Assembly (NCBI GenBank): GCA_039033415.1
Contig: JBCCCR010000022.1
Span: 29,579-93,578 of the forward strand
Direction: 5' to 3'
DNA from: Pseudomonadota bacterium
GTDB taxonomy: Bacteria > Pseudomonadota > Gammaproteobacteria > Xanthomonadales > SZUA-38
DNA length: 64,000 nt
The translations under genes were made by a program, and so were the position numbers. Under the pieces are notes generated by a model, which was not told where the DNA came from, ran no database searches, and worked only from the letters and a program-made list of their open reading frames with translations. Below, one piece after another: positions 14,877 to 31,100 of the stretch (positions within the stretch are counted from its first letter, which is position 1; every line of letters starts with the position of its first letter).

Positions 14877-14882
14877 TATAAT
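14877..14882 (+). promoter_or_regulatory. perfect -10 hexamer TATAAT upstream of the nine-gene operon (no convincing -35)
   Basis: Consensus TATAAT in a GC-rich divergent intergenic region, 49 nt upstream of ATG 14931. The nearest TTGCAA (14859-64) is only 12 nt away, which is non-canonical spacing. Confidence 0.3.
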
Positions 14883-14930
14883 GGTCTGGTACATAGCGCA
14901 AACGCGACACGACCCGTGGAGAGCAACACC

Positions 14931-16097
14931 ATGAAGCAGCCGGTGCAAAACCTGTCTAGGACGTTGGGAACGCCTTTGGCGAACCCCGTAGCTACGCCTG
15001 CACGCTGGCTCCCGGTGTGTTTGCTGGCGCTGGCCGCCGGGTGCGCCAGCCAGAGCCAAATGCAGCAGCAGCAAATGCCGCAGATGCCGTCTCCTTCGGC
15101 CTCCCCGCCGTCGCCACCGTCGATGCCGTCGTCGTCGCCGAGCATGCCGTCGCCCTCGCCGAGCATGCCGACCCCGAGTATGCCGTCACCCAGCATGCCA
15201 ACACCGTCGATGCCAACACCTTCGGGCGCCCCTTCTTCACCGAGTCCAGAGCAGTCGCCAAGTGCCCAGCCGCCGGGTTCCAGCAGCCCGAGTGAAGCCG
15301 GCGCGGAGTCGCAGGCGAACGCCGAGTCGAGCGCGGCTGGCGGTACCAGCGAGCTGGAAGTCTTAGAGCCGGAAGAGTCCGAAGCGTCCGCGGATGCGAG
15401 CGCTGAGCCCACCTGGGACGAAGGAGAAAGCGGTGGCGAAGAGTCGCTCGCCGACGCCTCCGAGAGCTCGGCGGGTGGCGGTGCATCGGGCGGCGAAGAG
15501 TCGCTGGAAGAAGAATCACTCGCTGAGGCCGGTGAAGCCGGTGCCAGCGGCGGCGCGCCGGGCGGCGGCGACCCCACCAGCGGCGAGATGGCTGCCGCCA
15601 CCGGCGGCATGCCGGGCGGCGCTTCACCGGCGGGTACGGAGCAGTCGCTTGAGGCGGAGCTGAATAGTTCGCTCGAGATCTTCGAAGGTGAAATGGAACG
15701 CACCATCACCATCCTGGCCTCCAATGACGATGCTGACGGCGATGCGCAGGGCGCCGCCGGCGGCAACGGCGGCGAAGAGGAAGAGGGTGGGCTGTTTGAT
15801 CAGACGGGTGCCGGCGCTGAGCTGGTGCTGGTAAACGGCGATCCCTCGCTGCTGCCGGGTAGTTCCCAGGACGTGGATGGTGAGACGGGCGACGAACCGA
15901 TCACCGGCCGGCCCGGGCTGGAAGGCGGGGGTACGGCCAACGAAACTTATCCTCGCGTACCGGGCGATGTGGGTGACGGCCTGGACGACGACGTGGTCGC
16001 GCGTCAGATTCGTGAAGCAGCGATCAACGAAGACGACCCGTCGCTGCGTGAGAAGCTGTGGGAAGAGTACCGCAACTACAAAAAATCCATTCAATGA
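14931..16097 (+). CDS. lipoprotein with Pro/Ser/Met tandem repeats and a long polyacidic, low-complexity region
   Basis: Lipobox 'LALAAGC', then 'PSMPSSSPSMPSPSPSMPTPSMPSPSMPTPSMPTPS', then about 250 aa rich in E/D/G/S/A. The C-terminus 'DDVVARQIREAAINEDDPSLREKLWEEYRNYKK' looks more ordered. Start at ATG 14931 with GGAGA 8 nt upstream (the track start is TTG 14859). Confidence 0.7.
   Translation: MKQPVQNLSRTLGTPLANPVATPARWLPVCLLALAAGCASQSQMQQQQMPQMPSPSASPPSPPSMPSSSPSMPSPSPSMPTPSMPSPSMPTPSMPTPSGAPSSPSPEQSPSAQPPGSSSPSEAGAESQANAESSAAGGTSELEVLEPEESEASADASAEPTWDEGESGGEESLADASESSAGGGASGGEESLEEESLAEAGEAGASGGAPGGGDPTSGEMAAATGGMPGGASPAGTEQSLEAELNSSLEIFEGEMERTITILASNDDADGDAQGAAGGNGGEEEEGGLFDQTGAGAELVLVNGDPSLLPGSSQDVDGETGDEPITGRPGLEGGGTANETYPRVPGDVGDGLDDDVVARQIREAAINEDDPSLREKLWEEYRNYKKSIQ
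15069..15225 (+). repeat. imperfect in-frame tandem repeat (15-21 nt units containing 'ATGCC(G/A)') encoding (P-S-M-P-S/T)n
   Basis: 'atgcc' recurs at 15075, 15084, 15123, 15144, 15165, 15180, 15195 and 15210. The last four are spaced exactly 15 nt apart. Confidence 0.75.
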
Positions 16098-16105
16098 GGA
16101 ACGTC

Positions 16106-17311
16106 ATGTCAAGGATCGTTTCAGTGACCGTTGTGCTGGCCCTTGCGGCTGCCCTGTCCGCTTGCACCACCGCCACGGTGAAAACCGTTAACTCGGTTCA
16201 AATCGACAAAGCCGATCAGGAGCTGGCTCAGGATCAGCTGCTGGATGTGGGTCTGCAGATTTTTAATCCGGGCATACCCGCCGACCAGGAAGACCGGGAA
16301 GACGACAACATCTATCCGGCCGTCCGCCGGGCTGAGGCTCGCTACGTCCCTTACCTGCTGCGGACCACGCTCGAGGAGTCTAACCAATGGGGGGCGGTGC
16401 GGGTGCTGCCGGGTGAAGACCCGGCCTCTGAGGTCACCGTCACCGGCGAGATTCTCCACTCCGACGGCGTGGTGCTGGAGGTGCGCGTCACCGCCACCGA
16501 CGCCACCGGGCGCACCTGGTTGGATAAGAAGTACGCTGACCTGGCGACCCAGTTTGCCTATCGCGACGACGTGGAGTACGACGGCGATGCGTTTCAGGAT
16601 CTGTACAACCTGGTCGCCAACGATCTGCGCAAGGCGCGCGACGAGCTGAGCCGTGAGGAGCTCAAGGAGATCCGCACCGTGGCCAATCTGCGCTACGCGG
16701 CGGAGGTGGCGCCGGACGCGTTCGGCAACCACCTGACCGAAGATCGCAACGGAGACGTGGTCATAAACCGCCTGCCCGCGTACGACGATCCGATGATGCG
16801 CCGCGTGGCCCGCATCCGGGAGAGTGAGTACCTGTTTATCGATACGGTCGATCAGCAGTACGCGGTGTTTTATCAGCAGATGGATCCCAGCTACGACCAG
16901 TGGCGTCGATACTCCTACGAGGAGACGCTGGCCGAAGAAGACATCAAGCGCTCCGCCCGGACCCGTATGCTCGCCGGCCTGCTGGGTGTGGTGGGTGGCG
17001 CGGCCATCTCGTCCAACGCCAACGGCAACTGGGCCCAGAACAGTATCGGCAACGCTGCCGCGCTGGGCGGCCTATACGCCCTGAAGCAGAGCTACGACAC
17101 CTATCAGGAAGCCAAGATCCACCAGGAGGCGCTCAAAGAACTCGCCGCGTCGTTCGACGCTGAGGTCAAGCCGATTGTGCTGGAGGTGGAAGGTGAGGTC
17201 GTGAAACTCAACGGCACCCTCGACGCGCAGTACCAGGAATGGCGTCGGCTGATGCGGGAGATCTACGAAGCCGAGACCGGCATACCCGTAGCGGACGCGG
17301 TTCCGCAATAA
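16106..17311 (+). CDS. hypothetical lipoprotein
   Basis: 'VVLALAAALSAC' lipobox. ATG 16106 has GAGGA 5 nt upstream. The in-frame ATG 16094 (ATGA overlap with the upstream stop) is an alternative start. Confidence 0.7.
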   Translation: MSRIVSVTVVLALAAALSACTTATVKTVNSVQIDKADQELAQDQLLDVGLQIFNPGIPADQEDREDDNIYPAVRRAEARYVPYLLRTTLEESNQWGAVRVLPGEDPASEVTVTGEILHSDGVVLEVRVTATDATGRTWLDKKYADLATQFAYRDDVEYDGDAFQDLYNLVANDLRKARDELSREELKEIRTVANLRYAAEVAPDAFGNHLTEDRNGDVVINRLPAYDDPMMRRVARIRESEYLFIDTVDQQYAVFYQQMDPSYDQWRRYSYEETLAEEDIKRSARTRMLAGLLGVVGGAAISSNANGNWAQNSIGNAAALGGLYALKQSYDTYQEAKIHQEALKELAASFDAEVKPIVLEVEGEVVKLNGTLDAQYQEWRRLMREIYEAETGIPVADAVPQ

Positions 17312-17322
17312 GCGACGACCCC

Positions 17323-19545
17323 ATGCCCACTGATCCGACAACGCTGGAACAGTTCAGCGACCGGCAGCCTTTGCCTGGCGCGAGCGGAAATAGCCTGCTC
17401 GCGAACCTGGACGGCGCACCGGTCCGGCTGCGACGGCTGCCGCTGACACCCGACGCGGTGACGGCGGCCCGGCAGCAGCTGGCGGCTGCGGCCGGCATCA
17501 GCCATCCAGCGATTGTGCCGGACAGCGGTCTGCTGGTGCAGGACGGTGAGGTTTGGGTATGGCGGCCGGAGCTGGAAGGTGAGGCCCCCGTCAGCGACGA
17601 CCAGGAACAGCGGCTGGCGTTCGCCCAGCGCACCTGTGAAGCGCTGGGGCTGATTCATCGAGCGGGCTTTGCGCATGGCGCGGTGGACGGCATACACCTC
17701 ATCATGACGCCCGCGGACGGCCTGAAGCTCGTCGATCCGACGCTCGACGCCGCAGCGACACCCACCCAGGACATGCAGGCACTCGGACGCGTGCTGTTTG
17801 AGTGGGAGACGGGGCAGAGCGCCCAAAATCTTCAGCAGCCGGAGCTGGCCGCCGCGCTCACGCGGCAAGCGGCCCAGCGGCCGCTACCGCCTCGTCTGGC
17901 GCGTCTGATCCTGCAGCTGCTATCCGAAGAACCGCCGGCCGCAACGCTGGCGGCTGAAGACCTCGAGGACATCCGGCTGAGTCTCGCCCGAGCGGATGCC
18001 CAGGTGCAGGCGCACTGGCAAACCGAATCGTATGAGCCGGTCAAAGCCGTCAAGGGCTCGACACCCTCGATTAGCCCGGTGCAACCCGCCGCGCAGCCAC
18101 AATCGAAGGCGCCAGCTTTTATCGCTACCGCCGCCGCCTGCGTGCTGCTGCTGGCGATTGTATTTGTCGTTGGCGTCCTGCCCGACCGGGTTGCCCCCGA
18201 ACCCGAGCGCGTCGCTGAGACCGCGGCCGCTGCGCCCGAGCCGGCAGCGCCCGAACCGCCGCCGCCGGCGGCGGCGCCGCTGAGTCAGGCTGACCTTGAG
18301 CGTCTGCTGCGCCAGCGTGAGTCGGCTCAGGCGGTGCTGGACGAGCTGATCAATCTCCAGCTGGAGCTGGAGGAGCAGCAGGTGGAACGCTGGGCCGAAC
18401 GGCGGTTTGGTGAGGCGCGCGATCTGGCCGCGTCCGGCGATGAGCCGTTTCGCGAGCAGCAGTTCGAGCTCGCGGAAAAGATTTATGCCGATGCGTTTCA
18501 GGAGATGCAGGCTGTTGCAGCGCTTCGTCCCATCATTGTGGCCGAGGCGCTGGAGCGAGGACGTTACGCGTTCGACCGGGGCAACGCGGCGGACGCGAGC
18601 GACGCCTACTCGCTGGCGCTGGCGATCGATCCGGAAAACGAGCAGGCCAAGATCGGTAAAGCCCGGTCCGAAACGCTGGATCGGGTCAAAGCGCTGATGG
18701 CGGACGTCATGGAGGCGCGCGACGAGCTCCGCCTCAGCGACGCCCTGTCGCTGCTAGACCAGGTGCTGGCACTCGACCCCCTGACCGAAGAAGCGGTCGG
18801 GCTCAAAAGTGAACTGCAAACCGAGCTGGCTGACGCGCGCTTTCGCAACGCGATGTCGGACGGGCTGGCCGCGCTGTCGGCAGGCCGCTGGCAGGAGGCG
18901 CGCACGGCGCTGAATCGGGCCGCCAAGCTTGAGCCGGCCAACCGCGCGCCGAAAGACGCGCTGATCGAACTGGAGCGGCGGCAGCGCGATGCGCTGGTCG
19001 CCCGCGATATTGGCAAAGCCCGCACGGCGCAGGATCAGGAGCGCTGGGAAGCGGCCATCAAACACTTCGACGATATCTTAAAGCGCGACCCCAACTCGCG
19101 GGTGGCCCAGGAAGGGCGTGCCCAGGCGGTTGAGCGGCAGGATCTGGACCAGCGGCTCACCTCGCTGCTGCGAGACCCGGCCCAGCTCTGGTCCAACGAG
19201 GGCCGCTCGACGGCGCGTTCGTTGCTTTACGACGCGCGGGCGATCGAGGGTCCTGGCCCGCGGCTGCGCGACCAGCTCGTCCGCCTCGACCAACAGATCG
19301 ACCTTGCGGCGCGGCCGCAGCCGGTGACGCTGGTGTCCGACAACGCCTGCAACGTGGTGGTCTATAAGGTCGCGCGCCTCGGGCAGTTCGACCGGCACCA
19401 GCTTGAGCTGCTGCCCGGCCGCTATACGGCGGTCGGCACGCGCGACGGCTACCGCGATGTCCGCGTCGAATTTATGGTCCCGGCCGACCAGGCGCCGCAG
19501 CCGGTCTCGCTGCGCTGCGAAGAACAGGTCCTGGCGCGAGGCTAA
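17323..19545 (+). CDS. Hanks-kinase-like (apparently catalytically dead) domain - TM helix - coiled coil/TPR repeats - PEGA-like C-terminus
   Basis: Kinase-like blocks 'ISHPAIV', 'LGLIHRAGFAHGAVDGIHLIM', 'LKLVDPTL' and 'ALGRVLFEWETG'. TM helix 'FIATAAACVLLLAIVFVVGVL'. At least 4 TPR-like units ('..ALAIDPENEQA..', '..LALDPLTEEA..', '..AKLEPANRAP..', '..ILKRDPNSRVA..'). Start at ATG 17323. Confidence 0.7.
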   Translation: MPTDPTTLEQFSDRQPLPGASGNSLLANLDGAPVRLRRLPLTPDAVTAARQQLAAAAGISHPAIVPDSGLLVQDGEVWVWRPELEGEAPVSDDQEQRLAFAQRTCEALGLIHRAGFAHGAVDGIHLIMTPADGLKLVDPTLDAAATPTQDMQALGRVLFEWETGQSAQNLQQPELAAALTRQAAQRPLPPRLARLILQLLSEEPPAATLAAEDLEDIRLSLARADAQVQAHWQTESYEPVKAVKGSTPSISPVQPAAQPQSKAPAFIATAAACVLLLAIVFVVGVLPDRVAPEPERVAETAAAAPEPAAPEPPPPAAAPLSQADLERLLRQRESAQAVLDELINLQLELEEQQVERWAERRFGEARDLAASGDEPFREQQFELAEKIYADAFQEMQAVAALRPIIVAEALERGRYAFDRGNAADASDAYSLALAIDPENEQAKIGKARSETLDRVKALMADVMEARDELRLSDALSLLDQVLALDPLTEEAVGLKSELQTELADARFRNAMSDGLAALSAGRWQEARTALNRAAKLEPANRAPKDALIELERRQRDALVARDIGKARTAQDQERWEAAIKHFDDILKRDPNSRVAQEGRAQAVERQDLDQRLTSLLRDPAQLWSNEGRSTARSLLYDARAIEGPGPRLRDQLVRLDQQIDLAARPQPVTLVSDNACNVVVYKVARLGQFDRHQLELLPGRYTAVGTRDGYRDVRVEFMVPADQAPQPVSLRCEEQVLARG

Positions 19546-19604: not shown

Positions 19605-21722
19605 ATGAGCGACCTGAAAACGCCCGCGCAGCAGAGCTCGGGTGACGATCACTTTGAGGTCATCACGCCGACCGACTTTCAGCCGGCGGCGGCGACCACC
19701 AGCCGCGGCATTGGCGGCGTGTCGTGGTGGACCGTCGGCAGCTTCGCGCTGCTCGGACTGGTGGCGGGCTGTGCCCTATACCTCTTCACCGCGCGCTCGG
19801 TCCTGATCGACATCGCGCCGGCCCCCGACTCGATGGAGCTGGACGGGGCGCTGCTGTTTCCGCTGAAGCTCGGCGAGCGGTGGCTGCTGCACCCTGGCGG
19901 CTACACGGTGGAGGCGACCCTCGAGGGCTATCATCCGCTCAAGACCGACTTTGCCGTGCTGTCGGAAGACGGCCAGCAGTTTGCCTTCACCATGGACAAG
20001 CTGCCTGGACTGCTCAGCGTGACGGCCGGTGACGTGCCCGGTGCCCACGTCTGGGTGGACGGTCAGCCGCTGAGCCCCGCGCCGCTCAGCCAGCACGAGC
20101 TGGAACCCGGCACCTATCAGCTGACGGTGCGCGCGCCCCGCTATCGCGACTTCGACCAGACCATCGACATCGAGGGCAAGCAGATCGAGCAGACCGTTGC
20201 GGCGGTCCTCGAGCCCGCCTGGGCCGACGTTCAGCTGACGAGCACCCCGGCCGGGGCCACGCTTTACGTGGACGGCGATCCGGTGGGGGAAACGCCGCTG
20301 ACGGCGCAGATCCTCGAAGGCGAACGCGACCTGTCGCTGCAGCTTGAGGGCTACAAAGATTGGGCCACCGGCCTCACCCTGACCGCCGGCGCTGAGCTGG
20401 CGCTGCCGACGGTGGAGCTGACGCCGGCTGACACCCTGGTCACCGTGGCCAGCACCCCTAGCGGTGCCAGCGTGACCGTGGAAGGCGAGTATCGCGGACA
20501 AACGCCGCTGCGGCTGGCGCTGGCGCCGGGCCGTTCTTACCGCATGGGCTTCACTCGGGCTGGCTACCAGTCGCGGCAGCGCGTCGTGGACGTGGCTGAG
20601 GGTGATGACACCCGGCTCAACATCCGGCTTCAGCCAATCCTCGGGGTTGTGCAGATGGCGGGTGAACCCGAAGATGCCGAGGTTTATGTCGACGGCGTAT
20701 TCCAGGGCCGGCTGAACGACCGCTTCGAGCTGGCGGCGCATCCGCAGCGCATCGAGGTGCGGCGCGAGGGCTATCAGCCTTACAGCACCACCGTGACGCC
20801 GAGCCCAAACCAGGAGCAGCTGCTGAACGTGGAGCTCACCAGTTTCGCGGACGCGGCGGCTGAGGCCAATCCAGACACCCTGGTGACCAGCACCGGCTAT
20901 GAGCTCAAGCTGATCCGGCCCAGCGGCGTGTATCGCCTGGGCAGCCCGCGGCGCGAGCAGGGTCGGCGCTCCAACGAATTCATCCGCCAGGTCCAGCTGG
21001 AGAAGCCGTTTTATCTCGGCACCCGGGAAGTGACCAACCTTCAGTTTAAGGCGTTCAGCTCGAGCCACGACTCCGGCATCGCGAGCACCAACAGCCTGAG
21101 CCTGAAGGATCAGCCGGTGGTGCGGATCAGCTGGGATCAGGCTGCGCGGTTCTGTAACTGGCTCAGCGCCAAAGAAGGCCTGCCCGCGGCTTATCAGGAG
21201 AGCAATGGCGTGATGGTGCCGGTCACTCCGATGACCATCGGCTATCGGCTGCCCAGCGAAGCGGAGTGGGCTTATGCTGCCCGCTATGGCGGCGGCTCCC
21301 AGTCCGCGCGCAAATATCCGTGGGGTGAGCAGATGCCGCCGCCGGGCGCCGCCGGCAACTTTGCCGGCACGGAGTCCAGCAGTGAGGTGGAGCGCGGCCT
21401 GTCGAACTACACCGACGAATATCCCGTCAGCGCGCCGGTGGCGCGTTACGGCAGCAGCTCGCTGGGGCTGCACGATCTGGGTGGCAACGTGCACGAGTGG
21501 ATTCACGACTACTACCTGATCAGCAGCAGCGGCCTCGGCAAATCGCCGCTCGATCCGCTGGGCGCGGCGGAAGGCAACAATCACGTGATCCGCGGCTCCA
21601 GCTGGCGCAGCGGCAGCATCACGGAGCTACGTTTGGCCTGGCGCGACCAGGGCTCCGGCGGCAAGGACGACATCGGCTTCCGCGTGGCGCGCTACATCGA
21701 CCAGGGCGGAGGAACGCCATGA
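19605..21722 (+). CDS. TM-anchored protein with about 5 PEGA-like repeats and a C-terminal FGE/SUMF1-type (formylglycine-generating-enzyme-like) domain
   Basis: TM helix 'WWTVGSFALLGLVAGCALYLF'. PEGA-like units such as 'TSTPAGATLYVDGDPVGETP...LEGYKDW' and 'ASTPSGASVTVEGEYRGQTP...RAGYQS'. FGE-like blocks 'VTNLQFKAF', 'ISWDQAARFCNWLS', 'YRLPSEAEWAYAARYG', 'GNVHEWIHD' and 'VIRGSSWRS'. GAGGAG SD 7 nt upstream. Confidence 0.8.
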   Translation: MSDLKTPAQQSSGDDHFEVITPTDFQPAAATTSRGIGGVSWWTVGSFALLGLVAGCALYLFTARSVLIDIAPAPDSMELDGALLFPLKLGERWLLHPGGYTVEATLEGYHPLKTDFAVLSEDGQQFAFTMDKLPGLLSVTAGDVPGAHVWVDGQPLSPAPLSQHELEPGTYQLTVRAPRYRDFDQTIDIEGKQIEQTVAAVLEPAWADVQLTSTPAGATLYVDGDPVGETPLTAQILEGERDLSLQLEGYKDWATGLTLTAGAELALPTVELTPADTLVTVASTPSGASVTVEGEYRGQTPLRLALAPGRSYRMGFTRAGYQSRQRVVDVAEGDDTRLNIRLQPILGVVQMAGEPEDAEVYVDGVFQGRLNDRFELAAHPQRIEVRREGYQPYSTTVTPSPNQEQLLNVELTSFADAAAEANPDTLVTSTGYELKLIRPSGVYRLGSPRREQGRRSNEFIRQVQLEKPFYLGTREVTNLQFKAFSSSHDSGIASTNSLSLKDQPVVRISWDQAARFCNWLSAKEGLPAAYQESNGVMVPVTPMTIGYRLPSEAEWAYAARYGGGSQSARKYPWGEQMPPPGAAGNFAGTESSSEVERGLSNYTDEYPVSAPVARYGSSSLGLHDLGGNVHEWIHDYYLISSSGLGKSPLDPLGAAEGNNHVIRGSSWRSGSITELRLAWRDQGSGGKDDIGFRVARYIDQGGGTP

Positions 21723-22042
21723 ACCAAAATGCCTTAAAGATCATGCTGGCTATGCTGCTCGGTCTCGGCCTTACAGGGCTGGCGGCCGGTCAGGCTGACG
21801 ACGCCGCCGACAAGTCGGAGACGGCCGAGGAGGCCAACGAATCCGCCGCGGAGTTCGACCCCGCGGTATGCCAGGAGCCGCCGGCGGAAGGGGAGACCCT
21901 ACCGTCCGAATGCGCGGAGCTGGCGGGCGAAGGGCCTACCAACGACGTCGACGCGGGTGAAATGCGCGCCACGATGCGTCGCTTCGTCCCGAGCGAACAA
22001 ATCTCGGAAGACAGCTCAGTGGCGTTTCCCAACGACATCTGA
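21719..22042 (+). CDS. small secreted acidic protein (107 aa)
   Basis: ATG 21719 overlaps the upstream stop (ATGA). Signal peptide 'MNQNALKIMLAMLLGLGLTGLAAG', then a D/E-rich region with 2 Cys. The track ORF starting at 21497 is an upstream extension that overlaps the FGE-like gene. Confidence 0.6.
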   Translation: MNQNALKIMLAMLLGLGLTGLAAGQADDAADKSETAEEANESAAEFDPAVCQEPPAEGETLPSECAELAGEGPTNDVDAGEMRATMRRFVPSEQISEDSSVAFPNDI

Positions 22043-22104: not shown

Positions 22105-22932
22105 ATGGACGGTACTGTCAGGACACCCACAACGATGAAAAAAGGTTTCCCGGTTGAGTTTGTGTTTCAGCTTTTTGCGCTGCTCGTGTCGGTGCTGATT
22201 GTGCATACCGTGTACGTCACGGTGGTGCGCCCGGCGGCCGCTGAGGTGATGCAGGCGCAGACGCAGGCGATCGCAGAAGACCCCAACTACGTGCCGGAGC
22301 GATCCGTTTACGTTCTGATCCGGGACTTTGAGCAGGAGGCCTGTTTTGTGCTGCTGTTCTGGGCGCTGGCGATTATGGCCTACAAAGCCTATCGGGGTTT
22401 GCGGGAGCGCCGGCTGCTCGAACAGGTGCTTATGCCCGTCGGCGACGGCATCAGTATCCTGCCGGAAGACACGCGCGAATACTCGCGCCCACTGCAGGCG
22501 CTGCCCGATCAGGAGCGCCGCTTTCTATTGCCCAAGGTGCTGCTGACGGCGCTGCACCGCTTTCGCTCCACGCGGGACATCCAGAGCGTGGCGACCACGG
22601 TGCGCGAGCTCTGTGAGCAGGAGGCGGAGCGCCTCGAATCGGAGCTCTCGATGGTGCGCTACATCGCCTGGGCGATTCCCTCCATTGGATTTATCGGCAC
22701 CGTGCGCGGGATCGGTGAAGCGCTGGCGCAGGCCCACAAGGCCGTGGAGGGTGACATCACCGGCGTCACGGACTCGCTAGGCGTGGCGTTTAACTCCACG
22801 TTTATTGCGCTGGTCCTGAGTATCTTTCTGATGTTTCTGATGCACCAGCTCCAGCTGATGCAGGAGCGCCTGTCGCTGGACGCGCAGGACTACGCCGAAG
22901 AAAACCTGATCGGGAAGCTGCGTGAGTCGTAA
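22105..22932 (+). CDS. MotA/TolQ/ExbB-family proton-channel protein
   Basis: N-terminal TM helix, a long cytoplasmic segment, then a TM2/TM3 pair 'YIAWAIPSIGFIGTVRGIGEAL' ... 'GVAFNSTFIALVLSIFLMFLMHQ'. This mirrors the ExbB/TolQ '..P.(L/I)G(L/F).GTV.GI' signature. Confidence 0.8.
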   Translation: MDGTVRTPTTMKKGFPVEFVFQLFALLVSVLIVHTVYVTVVRPAAAEVMQAQTQAIAEDPNYVPERSVYVLIRDFEQEACFVLLFWALAIMAYKAYRGLRERRLLEQVLMPVGDGISILPEDTREYSRPLQALPDQERRFLLPKVLLTALHRFRSTRDIQSVATTVRELCEQEAERLESELSMVRYIAWAIPSIGFIGTVRGIGEALAQAHKAVEGDITGVTDSLGVAFNSTFIALVLSIFLMFLMHQLQLMQERLSLDAQDYAEENLIGKLRES

Positions 22933-22974: not shown

Positions 22975-24357
22975 GTGATCGGCGTTGTCGAACTCAATGA
23001 CGCCGGCCTGCTGGTAGCGGCTGACGGCACCGAGCTGCTGGAGAGCCCGGGCTACCTGGCGTTTGAAGGCAAAAACCTTCATGTCGGGGCGGCCGCGGCG
23101 CAGCGCGTCAAGCTGATCCCCACGCAGACCCAGTACGCCTTCTGGGAATACTTTGCGAGCGAAACGCTCCCGACGGGCCAGCTGCCCCAGGCGGGCCTGA
23201 AACACGCGGATCTCGCCTATCGTCACCTGGAGCGCCTGTGGAGCATCGTCGGCAAGGACCTCAAGCAGCTGGTGCTGTGTGTACCGGCCGACTGGGGCCG
23301 GGCGGAGCTCGGTCTGCTGCTGGGGATCTGCCAGACGCTCAAGATTCCCGTGCGCGCGCTGGTCAATGTGGCGCTGGCGGCCAGCGCGATGCCCCAGCCC
23401 GGGCGTACGCTGATGCACCTGGACATCCATCTGCACCGGCTGGTGCTGAGCACGCTGGACCAGGGGCCGTGGCTGTCGCAGGCGGCGGTTGAGAGCACCC
23501 GAGAGGTGGGCCTGCTGCGGCTGCTCGACGGCTGGGCGTTTGCAGCGGCCGGCGCGTTTGTGCAGGCCACCCGCTTTGACCCGCTCCACCAGGCGCAGAC
23601 CGAGCAGCAGCTGTTCGATCGGCTGCCGGCGTGGCTGGCGGCGGCAAGCGGGCGCCGCCAGCTGTCGCTCAGCGTAGATCACAACGGCAATACGGTTGAG
23701 GCGCGGGCGCCTTCACAAATCTTCCGGGATGCCGCGGAACCCCTGTATCGCCGCATGGCGGAATTTGTCGGCTCACACCTTGCCGGCGTTGACCCGGTGT
23801 CGCTGGTGATCAGCCCGCGGCTTGCGGTTCTGCCGGGTGTCAGCGAGGAGCTGGCCGCGCTGCCGAACGTCCAGCTGATTCCGGGCGGACGGCTGGACTT
23901 CGCCGGCGTGCTGAATCGACTGTACCTGCCGCGGGACGCCGGCAAGGGTGGTGCGGTGAACGTCACCCGCATCCCCTGGTTCAAATCGGAGGACCAGGCG
24001 AGCCATGAGGCGCCGGGCAGCGCCCGCGCTTCGGCCCCGACCCATCTGCTCCACGAGCACACCGCCTACCGGCTGGCGGCGGGACAGCCGTTTGTAGTCG
24101 GCGCTGGCGTCCAGCAAAACGATGGGCTGAAGCTGGGCGGGGGCGGCGTGGGTGAGCGGCACTTCAGGCTGCGCCAGGAAAGTACCGGTTGGCTGCTGGA
24201 GGATCTGTCCGGCGGCGCCACCCGCATCAACGGCGAGCCGCTGGAGGGCCGCCGACCGGTTTCCGCCGGGGACCGCATCCAGCTTGGCAACCCGGCCCAG
24301 GAGCTGATCCTCATCGCCGAAGCCGCCACCGTGAGGTCTCCCAGTGCCGCGTCGTAA
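22975..24357 (+). CDS. cytoplasmic Hsp70/actin-like (ASKHA-fold-like, degenerate) protein with a C-terminal FHA-like domain
   Basis: The N-terminal region parallels Hsp70 blocks: 'IGVVELNDAGLLVAA' vs 'IGIDLGTTNS', 'LVLCVPADWGRAELGLLLGICQTLKIPVRALVNVALAASA' vs 'AVITVPAYFND..AG..V.RIINEPTAAALA', and 'LMHLDIHLHRLVLS' vs 'VLVFDLGGGTFDVS'. The C-terminus 'ERHFRLRQESTGWLLEDLSGGATRINGEPLEGRRPVSAGDRIQLG' is FHA-like. GTG start. Confidence 0.6.
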   Translation: MIGVVELNDAGLLVAADGTELLESPGYLAFEGKNLHVGAAAAQRVKLIPTQTQYAFWEYFASETLPTGQLPQAGLKHADLAYRHLERLWSIVGKDLKQLVLCVPADWGRAELGLLLGICQTLKIPVRALVNVALAASAMPQPGRTLMHLDIHLHRLVLSTLDQGPWLSQAAVESTREVGLLRLLDGWAFAAAGAFVQATRFDPLHQAQTEQQLFDRLPAWLAAASGRRQLSLSVDHNGNTVEARAPSQIFRDAAEPLYRRMAEFVGSHLAGVDPVSLVISPRLAVLPGVSEELAALPNVQLIPGGRLDFAGVLNRLYLPRDAGKGGAVNVTRIPWFKSEDQASHEAPGSARASAPTHLLHEHTAYRLAAGQPFVVGAGVQQNDGLKLGGGGVGERHFRLRQESTGWLLEDLSGGATRINGEPLEGRRPVSAGDRIQLGNPAQELILIAEAATVRSPSAAS

Positions 24358-25435
24358 GCGCCAATTTAACGCCTTCAACCTGTCGTTTCTGGACATCATG
24401 TCCTGCGGCTTCGGCGCGGTGATCCTGTTTTTTGTGATCATCAATCACGCCCAGGACGAGCGGAACGACGACCTGACGGCGGACCTCTCCGGTGAGGTCA
24501 ACCTGGTGGAAACCGAGCTCAAGCTGGAGCAGCTGAACCTGGCGAAACTGCAGAACGCGCTGACGGAGGTCGAAGAGGAGATCGTGACGGCCCAGGGGGC
24601 TTCCGATCGTCTGCTGTCCGAGGTGGACGACACCGAGAAGGAGCTGTCGGAGCAGGACGCGGAGACCGCCGCCAAGCGCGAGCATATGAACCAGCTCATC
24701 ACCGATCTGAAGGCGCTGGAAAAGGAGCGCGACCGGCTACAGCAGCTCGAGACCGAAGGTGGCGAGAGCGTTCGCAGCTACACCGGCGAAGGTGACCGGC
24801 AGTACCTGACCGGGCTTCGGGTTGGCGGCCGGCGAATTGCCATCTTTGTGGACGCGTCAGCCTCCATGCTGGACGAGACGATCGTCAACGTGATCCGGCG
24901 CCGCAACCTGCCGGACGAGCAAAAGCTGCGGGCGGACAAGTGGCAGCGGGTTGTTCGGACCGTTGACTGGATTACGACGCAGGTGCCGGAAAACGCGCAG
25001 TTTCAGGTGTATACCTTCAATACCAAGGCCACGCCGGCGCTCGAGGGCACCGACGGCCAGTGGCTGGACGTGGAAAAAGGGCGCCGCCTGGATGAGGCGG
25101 TGGACCGGATTCGCAGCATCATTCCCACCGGCGGCACGCGGCTTCACTCGGTCACTGAAACCATCAACCGGATGAATCCACTGCCGGACAACGTGTTTCT
25201 GCTGGTGGACGGGTTGCCGACCCAGGGGCTGAATCCGGCCACCAAACGCGGCACCGTCACGTCCCGAGAGCGGGAGCGGTTTTTTTACGACGCCACCGCC
25301 GACCTGCCGATCGGCGTGCCGGTCAACACGATCCTGTTTCCCATGGAGGGTGATCCGAAGGCCGCCAGCGGCTTCTGGCGCCTGGCGATCCTCAGCGGCG
25401 GCTCGTTCATCACGCCCGCGAAGGACTGGCCATGA
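24344..25435 (+). CDS. ExbD/TolR/MotB-like TM helix (Asp17) - about 90-aa coiled coil - vWA domain protein, paralog 1
   Basis: 'MPRRKRQFNAFNLSFLDIMSCGFGAVILFFVII' has a basic N-terminus and a TM helix with Asp (codon 24392-94). Heptad-rich segment at about aa 45-137. vWA domain with MIDAS 'DASAS' (aa 170-174). GTG start has GAGG 7 nt upstream and a 14-nt overlap with the upstream gene. Confidence 0.75.
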   Translation: MPRRKRQFNAFNLSFLDIMSCGFGAVILFFVIINHAQDERNDDLTADLSGEVNLVETELKLEQLNLAKLQNALTEVEEEIVTAQGASDRLLSEVDDTEKELSEQDAETAAKREHMNQLITDLKALEKERDRLQQLETEGGESVRSYTGEGDRQYLTGLRVGGRRIAIFVDASASMLDETIVNVIRRRNLPDEQKLRADKWQRVVRTVDWITTQVPENAQFQVYTFNTKATPALEGTDGQWLDVEKGRRLDEAVDRIRSIIPTGGTRLHSVTETINRMNPLPDNVFLLVDGLPTQGLNPATKRGTVTSRERERFFYDATADLPIGVPVNTILFPMEGDPKAASGFWRLAILSGGSFITPAKDWP

Positions 25436-26430
25436 GCCGGCGTAAGCGCACCGTTGAGCAGGTCAGCCTGTCGTTCCTCGACTGCATCTGCTGTGGTTTC
25501 GGCGCCATCATTTTGCTGCTGGTGATCGTGAAAACGGCCGAGCCGATGATCATCGAGGAAACCCGCGAAGACTTAAGCGGGCTCCTGGCGGATCTGCAGG
25601 AGCAGCTGGTGCAAATCCGCGGCGAGACCACGGTACTGAACCGCGATCTGCAAACCAAAGAGGAACAGCTCTCGGAGGTTGAGGACAGCATCGCGCGCCT
25701 GCGGATGCTGCTGTCGACCCTCAAATCCGAGTTTGACTCCTCTTCCGATCAGAGTGACGCCATCACGGCGATCGAAAACCAGCTCAGCCGAGCCCGTCAG
25801 CAGCTCAACGAGATGCAGCGGCGGCTGAACTATTCCCGGGCGCTCGAAGACACCACGGTGGGTGGTATCCCGGTGGACAGCGAATACGTGATCTTTGTGA
25901 TCGACACCTCCGGCAGTATGCGCAACTTCGGCTGGGACCTCCTGCTGGATAAGATCATTGAGACCCTCGACGTTTACCCGGAAGTGAAGGGCATCCAGGT
26001 GCTCAACGACATGGGGGAATACATGTTCTCGCGCTATGCCGAGCGCTGGATTCCCGACTCGCCCGGGCGTCGTCGGGCGATCATCGATCGGATGAAAACC
26101 TGGAGCGCGTTTTCCAACTCCAGCCCCGTCGAGGGGATCACCAAGGCGATTGCCCGCTTCTACAAGCCGGGGCAAAAAATCAGCGTCTACGTTTTTGGCG
26201 ACGACTTTTCGGGCCGCTCCATCGCCCGCGTGATCGAGACGATCGACAAAATCAACCGTGAAGACGCTGAGGGCAACCGCCTGGTGCGGATCCACACGGT
26301 CGGCTTCCCGGTGTGGTTCACCGCGCCCCGCTCCCAGCAGGCATCGGTGGAGCGCTTTGCCACCCTGATGCGCCTGCTGGCGGAAAAAAATGGCGGAACC
26401 TTTGTCGGATTGAATTCTCACCAGCCGTAG
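25432..26430 (+). CDS. ExbD/TolR/MotB-like TM helix (Asp17) - coiled coil - vWA domain protein, paralog 2
   Basis: 'MSRRKRTVEQVSLSFLDCICCGFGAIILLLVIV' (Asp codon 25480-82). Coiled coil at about aa 45-133. vWA domain with MIDAS 'DTSGS' (aa 158-162). ATGA overlap with paralog 1. Confidence 0.75.
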   Translation: MSRRKRTVEQVSLSFLDCICCGFGAIILLLVIVKTAEPMIIEETREDLSGLLADLQEQLVQIRGETTVLNRDLQTKEEQLSEVEDSIARLRMLLSTLKSEFDSSSDQSDAITAIENQLSRARQQLNEMQRRLNYSRALEDTTVGGIPVDSEYVIFVIDTSGSMRNFGWDLLLDKIIETLDVYPEVKGIQVLNDMGEYMFSRYAERWIPDSPGRRRAIIDRMKTWSAFSNSSPVEGITKAIARFYKPGQKISVYVFGDDFSGRSIARVIETIDKINREDAEGNRLVRIHTVGFPVWFTAPRSQQASVERFATLMRLLAEKNGGTFVGLNSHQP

Positions 26431-27508: not shown

Positions 27509-28300
27509 TCACTGCTTCGGGCTGTAGTAGCGCGTCAGGTAGGTGCACAGGCCGTCGAGGCCGGGAAACAGCACCCGCTCATTGATGTTGGACTGATCGA
27601 GCTTGTCGCGCACTTCCCACTTCATCGCTGCGGGAATGATGATCTTGCGACACACGGTTTCTGCCGGGGAAAACCACTGGTCCATGGAAATCTTCGGATT
27701 GGACATCACCGAGAACAGCCCGGACTGATTAACGATTCGCGCATCCAGCGACGGCGGCTCGATAAACACCACAAACGGATTCGCGCGCTGGGCGTCAAAA
27801 GCGTCAAGGGTATTGACCTCTTCGTGGAGCATCCGGGTGGTGAACACGCGGGCGCTCTCGCTGCGCAGGCGGCTCATGAGCTGTGAGGACAGGTGCTGGT
27901 TGGTCGCCACAAAGTTCACGCACCAGATAGCGCCGTCCAGCTCAAACTTGTCCGTGTGGTCGGTGCAGAAATTTAGAGCAACGTAAGGTGAGTAGGTCCA
28001 GTCGAGCAGCCGGGTGGGCAGCCCGTGGTGCTGCGCCAGCGCCAGCCAGTTCCAGATATAGGCTTCCTCGTTCATCTCCAGGTGGGCGTACTTCTGGAAG
28101 CTGCGCAGGATGTGGGGCTCCAGCCGGGCGTAGTCCCCGCCGAGGCGCATCAGGGTGGTTTCCAGCCCGTAGCGGGCGTCCGAGACGCCGCGATAGGCAA
28201 AGTTCGAGCGGTAGCGACCGATCTGAGGATGGGGCGGCTCGTCGAACAACACCTGGTTGAGATGCGCCCAGTTTTCTACCCGGATTTCTTCGATGGCCAC
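27509..28300 (-). CDS. FRG-domain protein
   Basis: 'AYRGVSDARYGLETTLMR' and 'LALAQHHGLPTRLLDWTYSPYVALNF' match the FRG-domain signature. GTG start. Confidence 0.75.
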   Translation of the reverse strand: MAIEEIRVENWAHLNQVLFDEPPHPQIGRYRSNFAYRGVSDARYGLETTLMRLGGDYARLEPHILRSFQKYAHLEMNEEAYIWNWLALAQHHGLPTRLLDWTYSPYVALNFCTDHTDKFELDGAIWCVNFVATNQHLSSQLMSRLRSESARVFTTRMLHEEVNTLDAFDAQRANPFVVFIEPPSLDARIVNQSGLFSVMSNPKISMDQWFSPAETVCRKIIIPAAMKWEVRDKLDQSNINERVLFPGLDGLCTYLTRYYSPKQ

Positions 28301-28417: not shown

Positions 28418-29131
28418 ATGACCGCCACTGATCCAAACCCCGTTTACGTGATCGAACCGCCACCGCAGGCCTGGGTGCCGGTGGGTGAGGGGTGGGAGCG
28501 ATTTCCCGTGCGCCGCATCTACTGTGTCGGTCGGAACTACGCTGAGCACGCCCGGGAAATGGGGGGTGACGACCGCGACCCGCCGTTCTTTTTCCAAAAG
28601 CCAGCTGACGCTCTTCTGCACAGCGGGAAGGTGCTGCCTTATCCGCCGCTGACCGAAGACCTGCACCACGAGGTGGAGCTGGTCATGGCGCTCAAGAGCG
28701 GGGGCCGCAGGCTGTCGGCGAGCGCCGTCGCAGACGCGGTTTATGGACTGGCTGTCGGCATCGACTTCACCCGCCGCGATCTCCAGGCCGTGGCGAAGAA
28801 GGCCGGACGCCCCTGGGAAATTGGTAAGGCGTTCGATCACTCGGCGGCCATTGCGCCGCTGACGCCGCTGGACGGCGCGCCACTGCCCACAAGCGGCGAG
28901 ATCGTGCTGTCGGTGAACGGTGAGGTCCGTCAGCGGGGGGACATCCAGGATATGGTCTGGGGCTGCCTCGAAATTATCCAGACCCTGTCGACTCACTACA
29001 CCCTGGCGCCCGGCGACCTGATCTATACCGGCACGCCGGCCGGCGTGGGGCCCTTGATACCCGGGGATCAGCTCGAGGCCAGCGTCACCGGCCTGGCTCC
29101 ACTGGCAATCGCGGTCAGCGACCGGGACTGA
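28418..29131 (+). CDS. fumarylacetoacetate hydrolase (FAH) family protein
   Basis: 'RIYCVGRNYAEHAREMG', 'HEVELV' and 'GDLIYTGTPAGVG' are FAH-family blocks. Confidence 0.85.
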   Translation: MTATDPNPVYVIEPPPQAWVPVGEGWERFPVRRIYCVGRNYAEHAREMGGDDRDPPFFFQKPADALLHSGKVLPYPPLTEDLHHEVELVMALKSGGRRLSASAVADAVYGLAVGIDFTRRDLQAVAKKAGRPWEIGKAFDHSAAIAPLTPLDGAPLPTSGEIVLSVNGEVRQRGDIQDMVWGCLEIIQTLSTHYTLAPGDLIYTGTPAGVGPLIPGDQLEASVTGLAPLAIAVSDRD

Positions 29132-31100
29132 GGGTGCTGTGGAGCAGGTCAACCTGCAGGCTGTGAAAGCGCGAGATATAAAGCACCTGGCCGTCAGCTG
29201 ACGCTCCGAGCGCCAGTCCCACCGTGCTGGGCGCCGGCGAGTCGACCACACCCCGTTCCGGCCCGCTGAGGGAGCGCCACTCAAGGCCGTCCGCCGAAAC
29301 AAAATAGAGCCGGTTGCCGCCGATGGTCCAATCAAGTTCGCGGTTGGCCGGCAGCGCCACGGTGGGGGAGAGCGTGCGGTCGTTCTCCAGCCGCACCACG
29401 CCAGCCTGGCCTCCGACCCCGAGATAGAGCTGGCCGCTGCGATCTTGCTCCAAGCGGTTGAATGTCCCTTCGCGAATCAGCATGGCGGTGCCGCCCTGCC
29501 AGCGGAATAGCCCCTGACTTGCGCCGTCGGAACCCAGGAAGTAAAGGGTCCCCGCCGGATCGGCCACCACTTCGCTGGGCGCAAACTCGGCCGGCACCAT
29601 CAGCTCCGGTTCGCCGCGGGACAGGCTTACGGCAAAAACCTCGGAACCACGAGGGCTGTACACCACGTAGAGCAGCCGGCGGTTGTTCTGCCAGGAGGGC
29701 CGGGTGATTCGACCGTCGCTGAGACCCGCCCGCAGCGATGCCTCGCTGCCGTCGGGCTCGCTGAGCCACAGGCCGGTGGTGCCGCTCCGGGTGGAGACAA
29801 AGGCCAGGACGCGGCCGTCAGGCGACAACCTCGGGTGATTATCATAGTGCTGAGAGCCCACCGTCAGCTTGGTTTGGCTGCCGTCCCAGCGCCAGATATC
29901 AGCGCGATAGCGCGGCAGTTCGAAAACCAGGTTGGGAGCCTCAAAATCCAGGTTCATCACCCCGGTTTGCCCATAGTCTTGCCACGTGTCGCTGCCTGTA
30001 TGGTGGCGCCAAAGTCGCCTGACGCCCGAACGGTCGCTGCTGAGCATGACCTGGTCCCGGTTGATCCACGCGTGACCAAAGACCATCTGGTGGTCTTGTG
30101 TCAGCGGCGTAGCGCCACCGGGCTCGGTTTGCATCAGTTCGCCGACTCGGCCGTCGCTGCGCACAAACGATACGTTCACGCCGTCCGGGTGAAAGCGCGG
30201 CGTCAGGTCCTCGGCGGGTGGCCTGGGCCGGGTCCGAACGGTGGTAACCCCCGTTGCGACATCGAGCACGGAGATGCCGCCGCGACGGTTCTCAAAGGCC
30301 AGCTGCCCGCCGTCCTTCGACCAGTCCAGTCCGCCGGGCGCCCGACGGCAGGGTGTAACCGCTGTATCGATCGGGCCGGCCGCTGCCGTGTTTGAGTGGA
30401 TCTGCAGTTGGCACCCGTCCTCCGCCTCAATCATCAGCGCCCGAAATATTGGTCCCGGATGAACATGCCGTACGCTCGCGGGCCATTCCCCCGCCTCGAT
30501 CTTGAGCGAAGCCAGCGTCAGCCGTTGCCCCGGATGGGTGACCACACCCTGCGAGTCAGCCGCGTTGAACCACACCTGCTGGTCGTAAAGCACCGGCCAG
30601 CGCGCCGCGCCGGTGAAGGAGGTCAGCCGCGTGGCCTCGCGGTCGGCCGGCATTTCGGTTTGCGCCGTCGGCGGCACCTCCGCCTGAGGCGCCACGGACC
30701 GTCCAAGGCCCAACGCGACAACACCGGCAACGGCCGCGGTGGCTAGGCCAGCGATCCACGGCCAGGCTCGACGGGAGTGCGACGCTGGGTCGGCGCTGGG
30801 GGGCGAGGCCGCCTGCTCGCGCAGCCGGTAGCCGCGGCGTGGGATCGTTTCAATGAAATGGGGGTTGCGGGCCTCGTCGCCGAGGGCCTGGCGCAGTTCG
30901 TTGATGATCCGAGACAGGCCTTCGTCGCTCAGCCCAACCCGGTCGGCGAGCTCGGCGCGGCTCAGGACCCGGCCCGGCACCTCCGCCAGCAGCAGCAGCG
31001 TGTGTGACGCTTTTGGCGTTAACCGGACCTGTTGCCGGTGGCCGACCAGTTCGTTGGCATCGGGATCGAACCACCAGGGATGGATGCGTAGCTTGCCCAA
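29115..31100 (-). CDS. ToxR/CadC-type membrane-bound winged-helix regulator with a periplasmic TolB-like beta-propeller
   Basis: N-terminal OmpR/PhoB-type wHTH ('..VRLTPKASHTLLLLAE..LSRAEL..ETIPRRGYRL'). TM helix 'WPWIAGLATAAVAGVVALGL'. C-terminal repeats ('PRLSPDGRVLAFVS', 'PRFHPDGVNVSFV', 'DWSKDGGQLAFE') are typical of TolB/WD40-like propellers. TTG start. Confidence 0.75.
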   Translation of the reverse strand: MGKLRIHPWWFDPDANELVGHRQQVRLTPKASHTLLLLAEVPGRVLSRAELADRVGLSDEGLSRIINELRQALGDEARNPHFIETIPRRGYRLREQAASPPSADPASHSRRAWPWIAGLATAAVAGVVALGLGRSVAPQAEVPPTAQTEMPADREATRLTSFTGAARWPVLYDQQVWFNAADSQGVVTHPGQRLTLASLKIEAGEWPASVRHVHPGPIFRALMIEAEDGCQLQIHSNTAAAGPIDTAVTPCRRAPGGLDWSKDGGQLAFENRRGGISVLDVATGVTTVRTRPRPPAEDLTPRFHPDGVNVSFVRSDGRVGELMQTEPGGATPLTQDHQMVFGHAWINRDQVMLSSDRSGVRRLWRHHTGSDTWQDYGQTGVMNLDFEAPNLVFELPRYRADIWRWDGSQTKLTVGSQHYDNHPRLSPDGRVLAFVSTRSGTTGLWLSEPDGSEASLRAGLSDGRITRPSWQNNRRLLYVVYSPRGSEVFAVSLSRGEPELMVPAEFAPSEVVADPAGTLYFLGSDGASQGLFRWQGGTAMLIREGTFNRLEQDRSGQLYLGVGGQAGVVRLENDRTLSPTVALPANRELDWTIGGNRLYFVSADGLEWRSLSGPERGVVDSPAPSTVGLALGASADGQVLYISRFHSLQVDLLHSTLSPGR

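Follow-up and report, generated by a model that had tools for sequence, protein, structure and literature searches.

A gene at positions 22,975–24,357 of the window, by which we mean the whole 64,000-nucleotide stretch of contig JBCCCR010000022.1 under analysis, probably encodes a soluble, non-enzymatic cytoplasmic adaptor of a conserved envelope motor, once gated by a kinase and now phospho-independent in this lineage; we put the probability of this reading at about 0.55. Based on its translation, its homologues and an AlphaFold2 model, the 460-aa cytoplasmic product consisted of an Hsp70-like pseudo-nucleotide-binding domain, a linker and an FHA domain. The gene belonged to a conserved cluster of at least nine genes around a TolQ/MotA-like channel subunit and two proteins that combine a transpore helix with a domain of the von Willebrand factor A (vWA) type, and its product appears to be the best candidate for a cytoplasmic adaptor or regulator of this predicted proton-driven envelope motor. 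The N-terminal domain alone matched 1,397 clusters (50% identity) in a library of 1.84 billion proteins. The family is widespread across phyla yet unstudied, and full-text literature searches gave no description of this Hsp70-like/FHA protein. Features are on the forward strand unless stated otherwise.

The open reading frame (ORF) began with a GTG codon at 22,975 and ended with TAA at 24,355–24,357. A Shine-Dalgarno-like sequence, GGGGTGAG, was located upstream of the start, which agreed with the N-termini of the homologues (pattern M..(L/I)E(L/I)NDAG), and neither a signal peptide nor a transmembrane (TM) segment was visible in the 460-aa sequence. There were 105 full-length homologues, the closest of them (73–98% identity) from metagenome-assembled genomes of Lysobacterales and 'Pseudomonadota'. 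Family members were ~430–475 aa long, with a single architecture and no gene fusion that would reveal a partner among the 150 best representatives; the longer homologues P0037, P0104, and P0035 were rejected as fusions, being mis-called starts or loop insertions. The AlphaFold2 model had a mean predicted local distance difference test (pLDDT) score of 92.2 and a predicted TM-score of 0.74. The region is GC-rich and many long, spurious non-coding ORFs overlap it on other frames, which would be the argument for regarding this ORF as spurious as well. That explanation has already been refuted and retains next to no probability: the ORF is a genuine gene, because it has hundreds of homologues in conserved synteny, a pLDDT of 92 and domain-specific purifying selection.

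The N-terminal part of the protein (aa 1–337; 22,975–23,985) was predicted to adopt the fold of an Hsp70-type nucleotide-binding domain (NBD), a member of the ASKHA superfamily. When the model was compared with the PDB using Foldseek, the top 50 matches were all Hsp70 proteins (DnaK, Ssz1, BiP, Hsc70, Hsp110, and Ssb), with E-values from 1.4e-17 to ~4e-15 and a probability of 1.0; for targets comprising the NBD only, TM-scores normalised by target length were 0.63–0.70. The family profile (52 members) matched the DnaK NBD (8w1m) at an E-value of 3.7e-4, several other Hsp70s also being matched, and hhalign paired it with E. coli DnaK, using a DnaK sequence entered by hand, at an E-value of 2.5e-4 in an alignment that ended at aa 260. 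The model and the profiles indicate a two-lobed ASKHA fold with the subdomain arrangement of Hsp70, sharing both the lobes and the block order with the NBD of Hsp70/DnaK and especially with Ssz1 of the ribosome-associated complex.

The nucleotide-binding loops of this fold were not retained, either in the window or in the 380 unique full-length sequences that were aligned. At the place of the phosphate-1 loop (IDLGTTNS in Hsp70) the window protein reads VELNDAG (aa 5–11; 22,987–23,007), modelled as strand-turn-strand (E2–8, E11–16). The family consensus at this position is (L/I)-E-(L/I)-N-D-A-G(L/I), of the loop only D9 is kept (95%), and the ELNDAG of the window departs from the Hsp70 pattern D-[LIV]-G-T-[ST]-x-S. 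The phosphate-2 loop (DLGGGTFD in Hsp70) is replaced by HLDIHLHR (aa 148–155; 23,416–23,439): hhalign placed the DnaK segment AVYDLGGGTFD on LMHLDIHLHR, with Asp194 on D150, and the consensus H-L-D-x-x-L-H-R had D in 82% and E in 16% of the sequences (D/E 98%) and H154 in 87%. The pattern D-x-G-G-G-T-x-D was not found in the window, and Gly-Gly-Gly-Thr was absent from all 380 sequences. The DnaK segment IINEPTAAA was aligned with LVNVALAAS, which puts the catalytic Glu171 on Val132 (family consensus Ala), and the ribose/adenine contacts E267 and K270 of DnaK aligned with Pro and Leu. The adenosine motif (GGxxRxP), placed by Hsp70 block order beyond the end of the hhalign alignment, corresponds to SPRLAVLPGV (aa 280–289; 23,812–23,841), with the consensus S-x-R-x-A-x-L-P-G in which Gly-Gly is lost while P287 (96%) and G288 (93%) are conserved; neither G-G-x-x-R-x-P nor the catalytic Glu is present in the window.

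Because not one of the 380 sequences keeps any of the three glycine-rich loops, loss of the canonical ATP site is, as far as the alignments tell, a property of the whole family that extends beyond this window. Pfam HSP70 (PF00012) gave no match at E ≤ 0.01, the protein falling below every Pfam HSP70 threshold, and the substrate-binding domain and lid of Hsp70 were absent, the C-terminus being an FHA domain instead. No J-protein or GrpE partner accompanies it, in further difference from Hsp70/DnaK. Judged by its sequence, the protein lacks every functional Hsp70 hallmark that was tested, and we advise against classing it as an Hsp70 chaperone.

An active, non-canonical ATPase or chaperone that uses unusual nucleotide binding to assemble or remodel an envelope complex, the FHA domain having taken the place of the substrate-binding domain, could nevertheless be imagined. 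The fold is specifically that of Hsp70 rather than merely actin-like, two acidic residues of the cleft are kept (D9 in 95% and D/E150 in 98% of the sequences), and the order of NBD, linker and beta-sandwich mirrors Hsp70, with a hydrophobic P-T-H-L-L at the place of the interdomain linker. Against this stand the missing phosphate and adenosine loops, the replacement of Glu171 by Val/Ala and of E267 and K270 by Pro and Leu, the lack of a Pfam HSP70 match, and the absence of DnaJ and GrpE from the gene tables of the looked-up contigs, and we regard an active ATPase as unlikely.

What the family has conserved instead is a signature of its own. The segment TRFDPLHQAQTEQQLFDRLP (aa 199–218; 23,569–23,628) carries the motif T-R-F-D-P-L-H(x4)E-Q, which derives from the 'LRNDPLA..QRL' segment of Hsp70 subdomain IIB; hhalign paired the DnaK stretch 'LRNDPLA..QRLKEAAEKAK' with TRFDPLHQAQTEQQLFDRLPAWL, and the 'DPL..(Q)RL' homology is still recognisable, whereas the invariant R-F-D-P-L-H..E-Q form is peculiar to this family. 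Residues R200, D202, and Q211 were found in 100% of the 380 sequences, P203 and E210 in 99%, and F201, H205, and A207 in 93–94%. A DNA pattern written for the motif retrieved 120 loci from a collection of species-representative genomes, and 120 out of 120 were true homologues. Carriers of the gene include the cultured species Steroidobacter denitrificans, Peristeroidobacter agariperforans, and Spectribacter acetivorans.

The NBD-like domain is followed by a variable linker (aa 338–354; 23,986–24,036) of low model confidence (pLDDT 47–78, below 50 at aa 345–351) and by a conserved strand, PTHLLH (aa 355–360; 24,037–24,054), that precedes the FHA domain (consensus P-T-H-(L/V)-L; P 88%, T 86%, H357 98%; strand E357–360 in the model). 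The remainder (aa 361–447; 24,055–24,315) was predicted to be an FHA beta-sandwich with a degenerate phosphothreonine (pThr) pocket. Its sole Pfam match was to Yop-YscD_cpl (E 2e-4; 21.8 bits against a cut-off of 33.2), a clan member, and the FHA family itself was not matched at its gathering score; NCBIfam matches were weak (TagH TIGR03354, 17.8 bits against 120.25; FhaB, 18.5 against 125). The family profile matched FHA structures (Rv0020c, Rad53, Ki-67, EmbR, and kinesin FHAs) at E-values from 4e-8 to 1e-5, and the C-terminal 110 aa of the window protein alone matched 1uht (E 2.7e-4) and 3po8 (E 8e-3). The model showed a run of beta-strands over aa 357–447, and PF00498 was recorded on most homologues. 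Sequence and model together indicate an FHA-fold beta-sandwich.

In phmmer alignments, the G-R of canonical FHA domains fell on G376-A377 of the window protein, S-R-x-H on G393-E394-R395-H396, and S-x-N-G-T on S-G-G-A-T. The Arg and Ser that are the two main phosphate ligands are lost and the structural His and Thr are kept. Across the family, the states of the domain ranged from fully canonical (G-R and S-R-x-H) in some members, through an intact S-R-x-H with the Arg replaced in most, to loss of the Ser or reduction to a stub of ~45 aa in several lineages; the pThr-contacting Arg was kept in a minority only. It is predicted from these residues that binding of pThr peptides has been lost in the window clade, and such loss appears to be lineage-specific, unlike the family-wide loss of the ATP loops. 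The degenerate domain is still under selection, as expected of a phospho-independent binding module, because it is as conserved within the window clade as the Hsp70-like domain (mean pairwise identity 58% for each, against 41% for the linker) and carries clade-specific motifs (HFRLR; LEDLSGGAT.(V/I)N..(x)EGRR).

These results bear out the initial annotation, made from the sequence without searches, which had described an Hsp70-like N-terminal domain with replaced phosphate motifs joined to an FHA-like C-terminus (the quoted stretch being at aa 396–438). Relationships to both the ASKHA and the FHA folds were recovered, the former by Foldseek on the AlphaFold2 model, the profile and hhalign, the latter at 4e-8 for the profile and 2.7e-4 for 1uht, and in neither domain were the catalytic or pThr-binding residues intact. 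The two strings taken for replaced motifs, VELNDAG (aa 5–11) and LDIHLHR (aa 149–155), are present, and the hhalign register fits phosphate-2. A small correction applies to the pThr positions, for which the hand alignment was otherwise essentially right: G-A was rightly placed, but the E-R-H given for the second motif covers only its x-x-H part, the canonical Ser corresponding to Gly393.

Synteny tied the gene to a motor-like core. The upstream neighbour (22,105–22,932) encodes a MotA/TolQ/ExbB-like channel subunit (PF01618, E 2.5e-15). Downstream are vWA1 (24,344–25,435), with a basic N-tail, an LSFLD helix, a coiled coil and a vWA domain (metal ion-dependent adhesion site, MIDAS, DASAS), and its paralogue vWA2 (25,432–26,430), with an LSFLD helix, the MIDAS sequence DTSGS and a weak VWA_2 match. 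In both, the basic N-tail is short, the LSFLD transpore helix carries an Asp, a coiled coil is present and the DxSxS MIDAS motif is intact. In the loci retrieved with the family motif, the MotA-like gene adjoined in 107/107 and vWA1 in 106/106 of the informative ones, i.e., those extending far enough to show the neighbour, and vWA2 was likewise adjacent wherever the locus was long enough. When the search was started from the MotA-like side, within the subfamily at ≥59% identity, the gene was present in all 65 metagenome loci with at least 700 nt of downstream sequence. Between the channel and vWA genes, the cluster invariably carries the Hsp70-like/FHA gene.

The gene usually overlaps or abuts both neighbours and is translationally coupled to them. 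In the window, vWA1 starts with GTG at 24,344, with GAGG 8 nt before it, and overlaps the Hsp70-like/FHA gene by 14 nt; overlaps of 11–17 nt recurred in loci L123, L124, L126, L127, and L128, and overlaps of 4 nt or 1 nt with the MotA-like gene were found in L124, L126, and L129. The location between channel and vWA genes and the 14-nt overlap had been read correctly in the initial annotation. Its further suggestion that the protein is a scaffold or regulator of the stator may well be right, and is now better supported, because the gene adjoins the MotA/TolQ-like gene in every informative locus and is usually coupled to both neighbours; from this arrangement we infer that the protein binds the motor.

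The MotA-like protein was itself unusually conserved, with 48–80% identity across phyla and a mean column identity of 66%, far above its neighbours. Its cytoplasmic segments ILPEDTREYAR and LLPRxLLxALxRF.STR were nearly invariant, which suggests a conserved cytoplasmic partner. Among the components seen in the cluster of the window, the Hsp70-like/FHA protein alone is fully soluble and cytoplasmic. No TolR/ExbD/MotB gene was found among the cluster genes scanned. A force transducer driven by the proton-motive force has been predicted in which a heterologous pair of transpore-helix vWA proteins replaces TolR at a TolQ-like pentamer (PMC12204202, Mol Biol Evol 2025). The window shares the full core of that system, namely a MotA_ExbB-family gene, no TolR/ExbD and two vWA paralogues with an Asp-bearing helix, whereas the Hsp70-like/FHA gene, the kinase, the PEGA-FGE-sulfatase gene and the lipoprotein genes of the cluster are not mentioned there.

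A further member of the operon connects the FHA domain with phosphorylation. The gene at 17,239–19,545, whose true start is probably a Met at ~17,320, was found by translation and a chain of homology to encode a Ser/Thr kinase domain, a TM segment and a periplasmic TPR region. The kinase-like domain of the window matched that of L124 (E 2e-12), which matched the kinase domain of L129 (E 6e-16), and the latter has HRD, DFG and a Pkinase Pfam match; the homologue in L001 likewise has the G-loop, VALK, HRDLKPSN and DFG motifs. In the window, HRD is changed to HGA, DFG to DPT and the catalytic-loop Asn to His (the positions read H-G-A-V-D-G-I-H and D-P-T), Pkinase gave no match in the kinase-like protein, and the kinase is, on these residues, catalytically dead. 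Orthologues elsewhere were either intact kinases or proteins of ~505–530 aa that lack the domain and consist of TM and TPR regions only.

The state of the FHA pocket followed that of the kinase. Among the loci whose sequence covered the N-terminal part of the kinase as well as the FHA motif, S-R-x-H was present in 21 of the 22 with an intact HRD kinase, the exception being L114, and DFG was also present in all 22 except L025 and L114. Where the kinase was dead or the domain absent, S-R-x-H was found at a single locus out of 21 (L168). Independent Pfam annotations of the looked-up contigs agreed with this co-variation. In the types of L129 and L087, G-R and S-R-x-H occur together with a kinase whose catalytic motifs are intact. 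Kinase-positive lineages sharing only ~30% identity had a constant S-R-x-H, and in lineages with a dead or missing kinase it had drifted to GERH, AGQN, AGEH, SARI, DEPQ, IGSR, VRHH, SPRY or deletions. The sequences point to an FHA S-R-x-H that is kept where the operon kinase is intact and decays where the kinase is dead or deleted. In addition, the PEGA-FGE protein of many kinase-positive loci has an N-terminal cytoplasmic FHA-like domain (compare L001, 6,635–8,929) that is absent from the window clade, which points to another FHA reader whose loss accompanied that of kinase activity.

The co-variation and the second FHA-like domain, which is consistent with a kinase-centred FHA hub, could also mean that the protein serves the kinase branch alone as a signalling adaptor, binding the kinase and/or the PEGA-FGE-sulfatase protein for a non-motor output, with its position reflecting operon packing. 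However, the Hsp70-like domain and the invariant motif persist unchanged in kinase-less lineages (e.g., L126, L127, L128, and L058), position and coupling are always with the MotA-like and vWA genes, and no other fully soluble cytoplasmic component was seen in the window cluster. The core job of the protein appears to be independent of the kinase, because the Hsp70-like domain and its motif came unchanged through kinase loss, and we hold a role confined to the kinase branch to be rather improbable.

Under the preferred reading of a motor adaptor, the Hsp70-like domain would act as a non-enzymatic docking module whose R-F-D-P-L-H..E-Q surface binds the cytoplasmic face of a 5:2-type motor. Two docks are conceivable, namely the cytoplasmic domain of the MotA-like pentamer, which is highly conserved, and the short basic N-tails carried by the pair of vWA 'axle' subunits; docking to the tails would resemble the binding of PilN by PilM, given the same gene order and overlap. 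In the ancestral state, the FHA domain would have bound a pThr that the TM kinase produced, in the simplest case by phosphorylating itself, and envelope signals sensed by the periplasmic TPR region of the kinase would have gated the motor's assembly or activity. This phospho-switch would have been lost in the window lineage, leaving the FHA domain as a constitutive, phospho-independent binding module like those of the YscD type.

Several points weigh against this reading. Contact with the motor is something we infer. Non-canonical nucleotide binding by the Hsp70-like domain is conceivable, given that both D9 and D150 are kept and that the best structural matches include Ssz1, itself an atypical Hsp70. 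The naive Fisher test on the association of an intact kinase with S-R-x-H (p = 4.6e-10) was not used as the measure of support, since parsimony on a neighbour-joining tree, a rough one built from the Hsp70-like domain, gave only ~3 transitions per trait and the p value therefore overstates independence; the pattern of motif change is more telling than this count. Both exceptions count as well: L168 (Ga0209403_10000976) keeps G-L/S-R-S-H with no kinase domain in the available upstream sequence, where a kinase may be encoded elsewhere, and L114 has a kinase and yet reads S-A-Q-H. In L168 the PEGA-FGE protein still has the FHA-like domain at its N-terminus. At kinase-positive loci, too, G-R has mostly lost its Arg to T, L, V, S, A or W, and pThr binding is only putative even for those orthologues. 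A phospho-acceptor site was not identified; the Ser/Thr residues of the MotA-like cytoplasmic segments (EDTREY, F.STRN) showed no pattern by eye between kinase-positive and kinase-negative loci. The looked-up contigs list no PP2C phosphatase in their gene tables.

Known envelope machines offer partial parallels. The FHA domains of Fha1/TagH with PpkA/PppA in the type VI secretion system (T6SS), of YscD/MxiG in the type III secretion system (T3SS), and of GltG with AglRQS in Myxococcus likewise face the cytoplasm as parts of machines that span the envelope. PpkA–Fha1 resembles the present case in its partnered transmembrane Ser/Thr kinase, and YscD in being a phospho-independent FHA variant and the type of the protein's best Pfam match. 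For GltG, an AlphaFold model places the FHA domain on the TolQ-like AglR pentamer (PMC11761067). The differences are equally clear. The window protein scored far below the cut-offs of the TagH, FhaB and Yop-YscD_cpl families, it joins its FHA domain to an Hsp70-like domain instead of a TM segment, and the vWA domain is carried by the motor B-subunits and not, as in PpkA of the T6SS, by the kinase. No T6SS, T3SS or Glt genes were found nearby, and the cluster genes that were scanned gave no T6SS family match. Based on these scores and neighbours, the protein is not the TagH/Fha1 of a T6SS, and the comparison with Fha1 and PpkA drawn in the initial annotation survives as an analogy of parts, with no T6SS genes present and a TagH score of 17.8 against 120 bits.

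Cytoplasmic scaffolds with an ASKHA fold are found at other membrane machines, namely PilM, which binds the N-tail of PilN, the cytoplasmic domain of GspL, and FtsA. The likeness to the PilM type extends to gene order, with an actin/Hsp70-superfamily gene immediately upstream of, and coupled to, one whose bitopic product links a short conserved N-tail in the cytoplasm, through a TM helix, to a coiled coil in the periplasm. PilM still binds ATP. In contrast to PilM and FtsA, the Hsp70-like/FHA protein was placed with Hsp70 by Foldseek, and a peptide-binding groove is only putative here. As regards role, FlgX is reportedly soluble and proposed to stabilise or gate a MotA-family 5:2 unit by binding its cytoplasmic region, and brakes of the YcgR/MotI type, which have a PilZ fold unrelated to Hsp70/FHA, regulate flagellar stators. 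The likeness to FlgX, YcgR and MotI is one of role only, their context being flagellar and their folds unrelated.

A defence function was also considered. The protein might be an accessory of a Zorya-like anti-phage system, for which the weak PADLOC matches of the MotA-like neighbour to ZorA (E 7e-5) would speak. PADLOC gave no match for the Hsp70-like/FHA protein, nothing like ZorB, ZorC or ZorD was matched, and the only other PADLOC matches in the cluster were weak LmuB/JetC-type ones on the coiled coil of the vWA proteins. The cluster is chromosomal, with stable synteny in Gammaproteobacteria, Desulfobacterales, Acidobacteriota, and Kiritimatiellia, is apparently vertically inherited, and has housekeeping genes (BipA, a PpiC-type rotamase, and GST) on its flanks; plasmid and phage collections gave no match to it. 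An anti-phage role is therefore very improbable, and defence-system and mobile-element readings were rejected on the PADLOC null for the target and the nulls in the plasmid and phage collections. The vWA-MoxR and GTPase/Hsp70 conflict systems (Kaur et al., 2020) were set aside as different systems that lack a MotA component.

MotAB/ExbBD/TolQR motors drive flagella and gliding, energise nutrient import, sustain envelope integrity and serve in some phage defence, and how they are coupled and regulated at their cytoplasmic face is a central question. The motor cluster described here is widespread (>1,000 sequence clusters in several phyla) and its core was recognised only in 2025. What would have been listed as a 'hypothetical FHA protein' can now be described as an Hsp70 fold without ATP loops, bearing an invariant surface motif and a kinase-linked FHA pocket. 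New here is a putative cytoplasmic adaptor of an envelope machine that carries an FHA domain and has a pseudo-ATPase module derived from Hsp70 as its base, the motor class itself being only predicted. The family also offers a clean natural example of a kinase and its reader module decaying jointly while the regulated scaffold is retained. A bolder proposal, which we put forward tentatively and think less probable than the adaptor role itself, is that the Hsp70-derived pseudo-ATPase could be the dedicated clamp or clutch of uncharacterised proton-driven 5:2 motors in which vWA-tipped subunits replace TolR/ExbD/MotB. It would ancestrally have been switched by the kinase through a pThr–FHA dock and been hard-wired, by a dead kinase and a blind FHA domain, in several lineages including that of the window. 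If true, the MotAB/ExbBD/TolQR motor superfamily would gain its first phospho-regulated member, and the Hsp70 fold would for the first time be seen in a structural (non-chaperone) role at a membrane machine.

The other genes of the cluster mostly encode envelope proteins. The PEGA-FGE protein (19,605–21,722) has a TM segment, four PEGA domains (5e-50) and an FGE-sulfatase domain (4.5e-40) and is GldK/PorK-like, with a match to TIGR03525 (GldK) at 1e-26 that is below the cut-off. Its stop is overlapped by the gene of a small acidic secreted protein of 107 aa (21,719–22,042); a gene of 81–120 aa occupied this slot at every looked-up locus, with low sequence similarity. The N-tails of the vWA pair are conserved ahead of LSFLD, reading M-A-R-R-K/R-x-E-V-F and M-K-x-x-R-R-D/E-x-E-V-F, and the vWA domain of both proteins is barely detected by Pfam.

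Lipoprotein genes of the cluster are at 14,859–16,097 and 16,058–17,311. The first (forward strand) combines a long repeat rich in Pro and Ser (PSMPTPSMPSPS...) with an acidic region of low complexity, and only its C-terminal part is conserved elsewhere, with ~70% identity over short alignments. Downstream of the cluster are two apparently unrelated genes on the reverse strand, one for an FRG-domain protein (27,509–28,300), which also occurs in L123, and one for a protein with Trans_reg_C and PD40 (WD40-like beta-propeller) domains (29,115–31,100). Further upstream, two small divergent lipoproteins without a Pfam match are encoded on the reverse strand (13,347–14,042 and 14,000–14,638), next to a secreted TPR_12 protein on the forward strand (11,687–13,222). 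Based on gene tables only, genes of similar size and order (~205–240 aa) that lack a Pfam match were found, with a TPR_12 gene as neighbour, beside the cluster in L123 and L124, and the same arrangement was found downstream of it in L125–L127 and L129; the small divergent lipoproteins and the TPR_12 protein may belong to the system.

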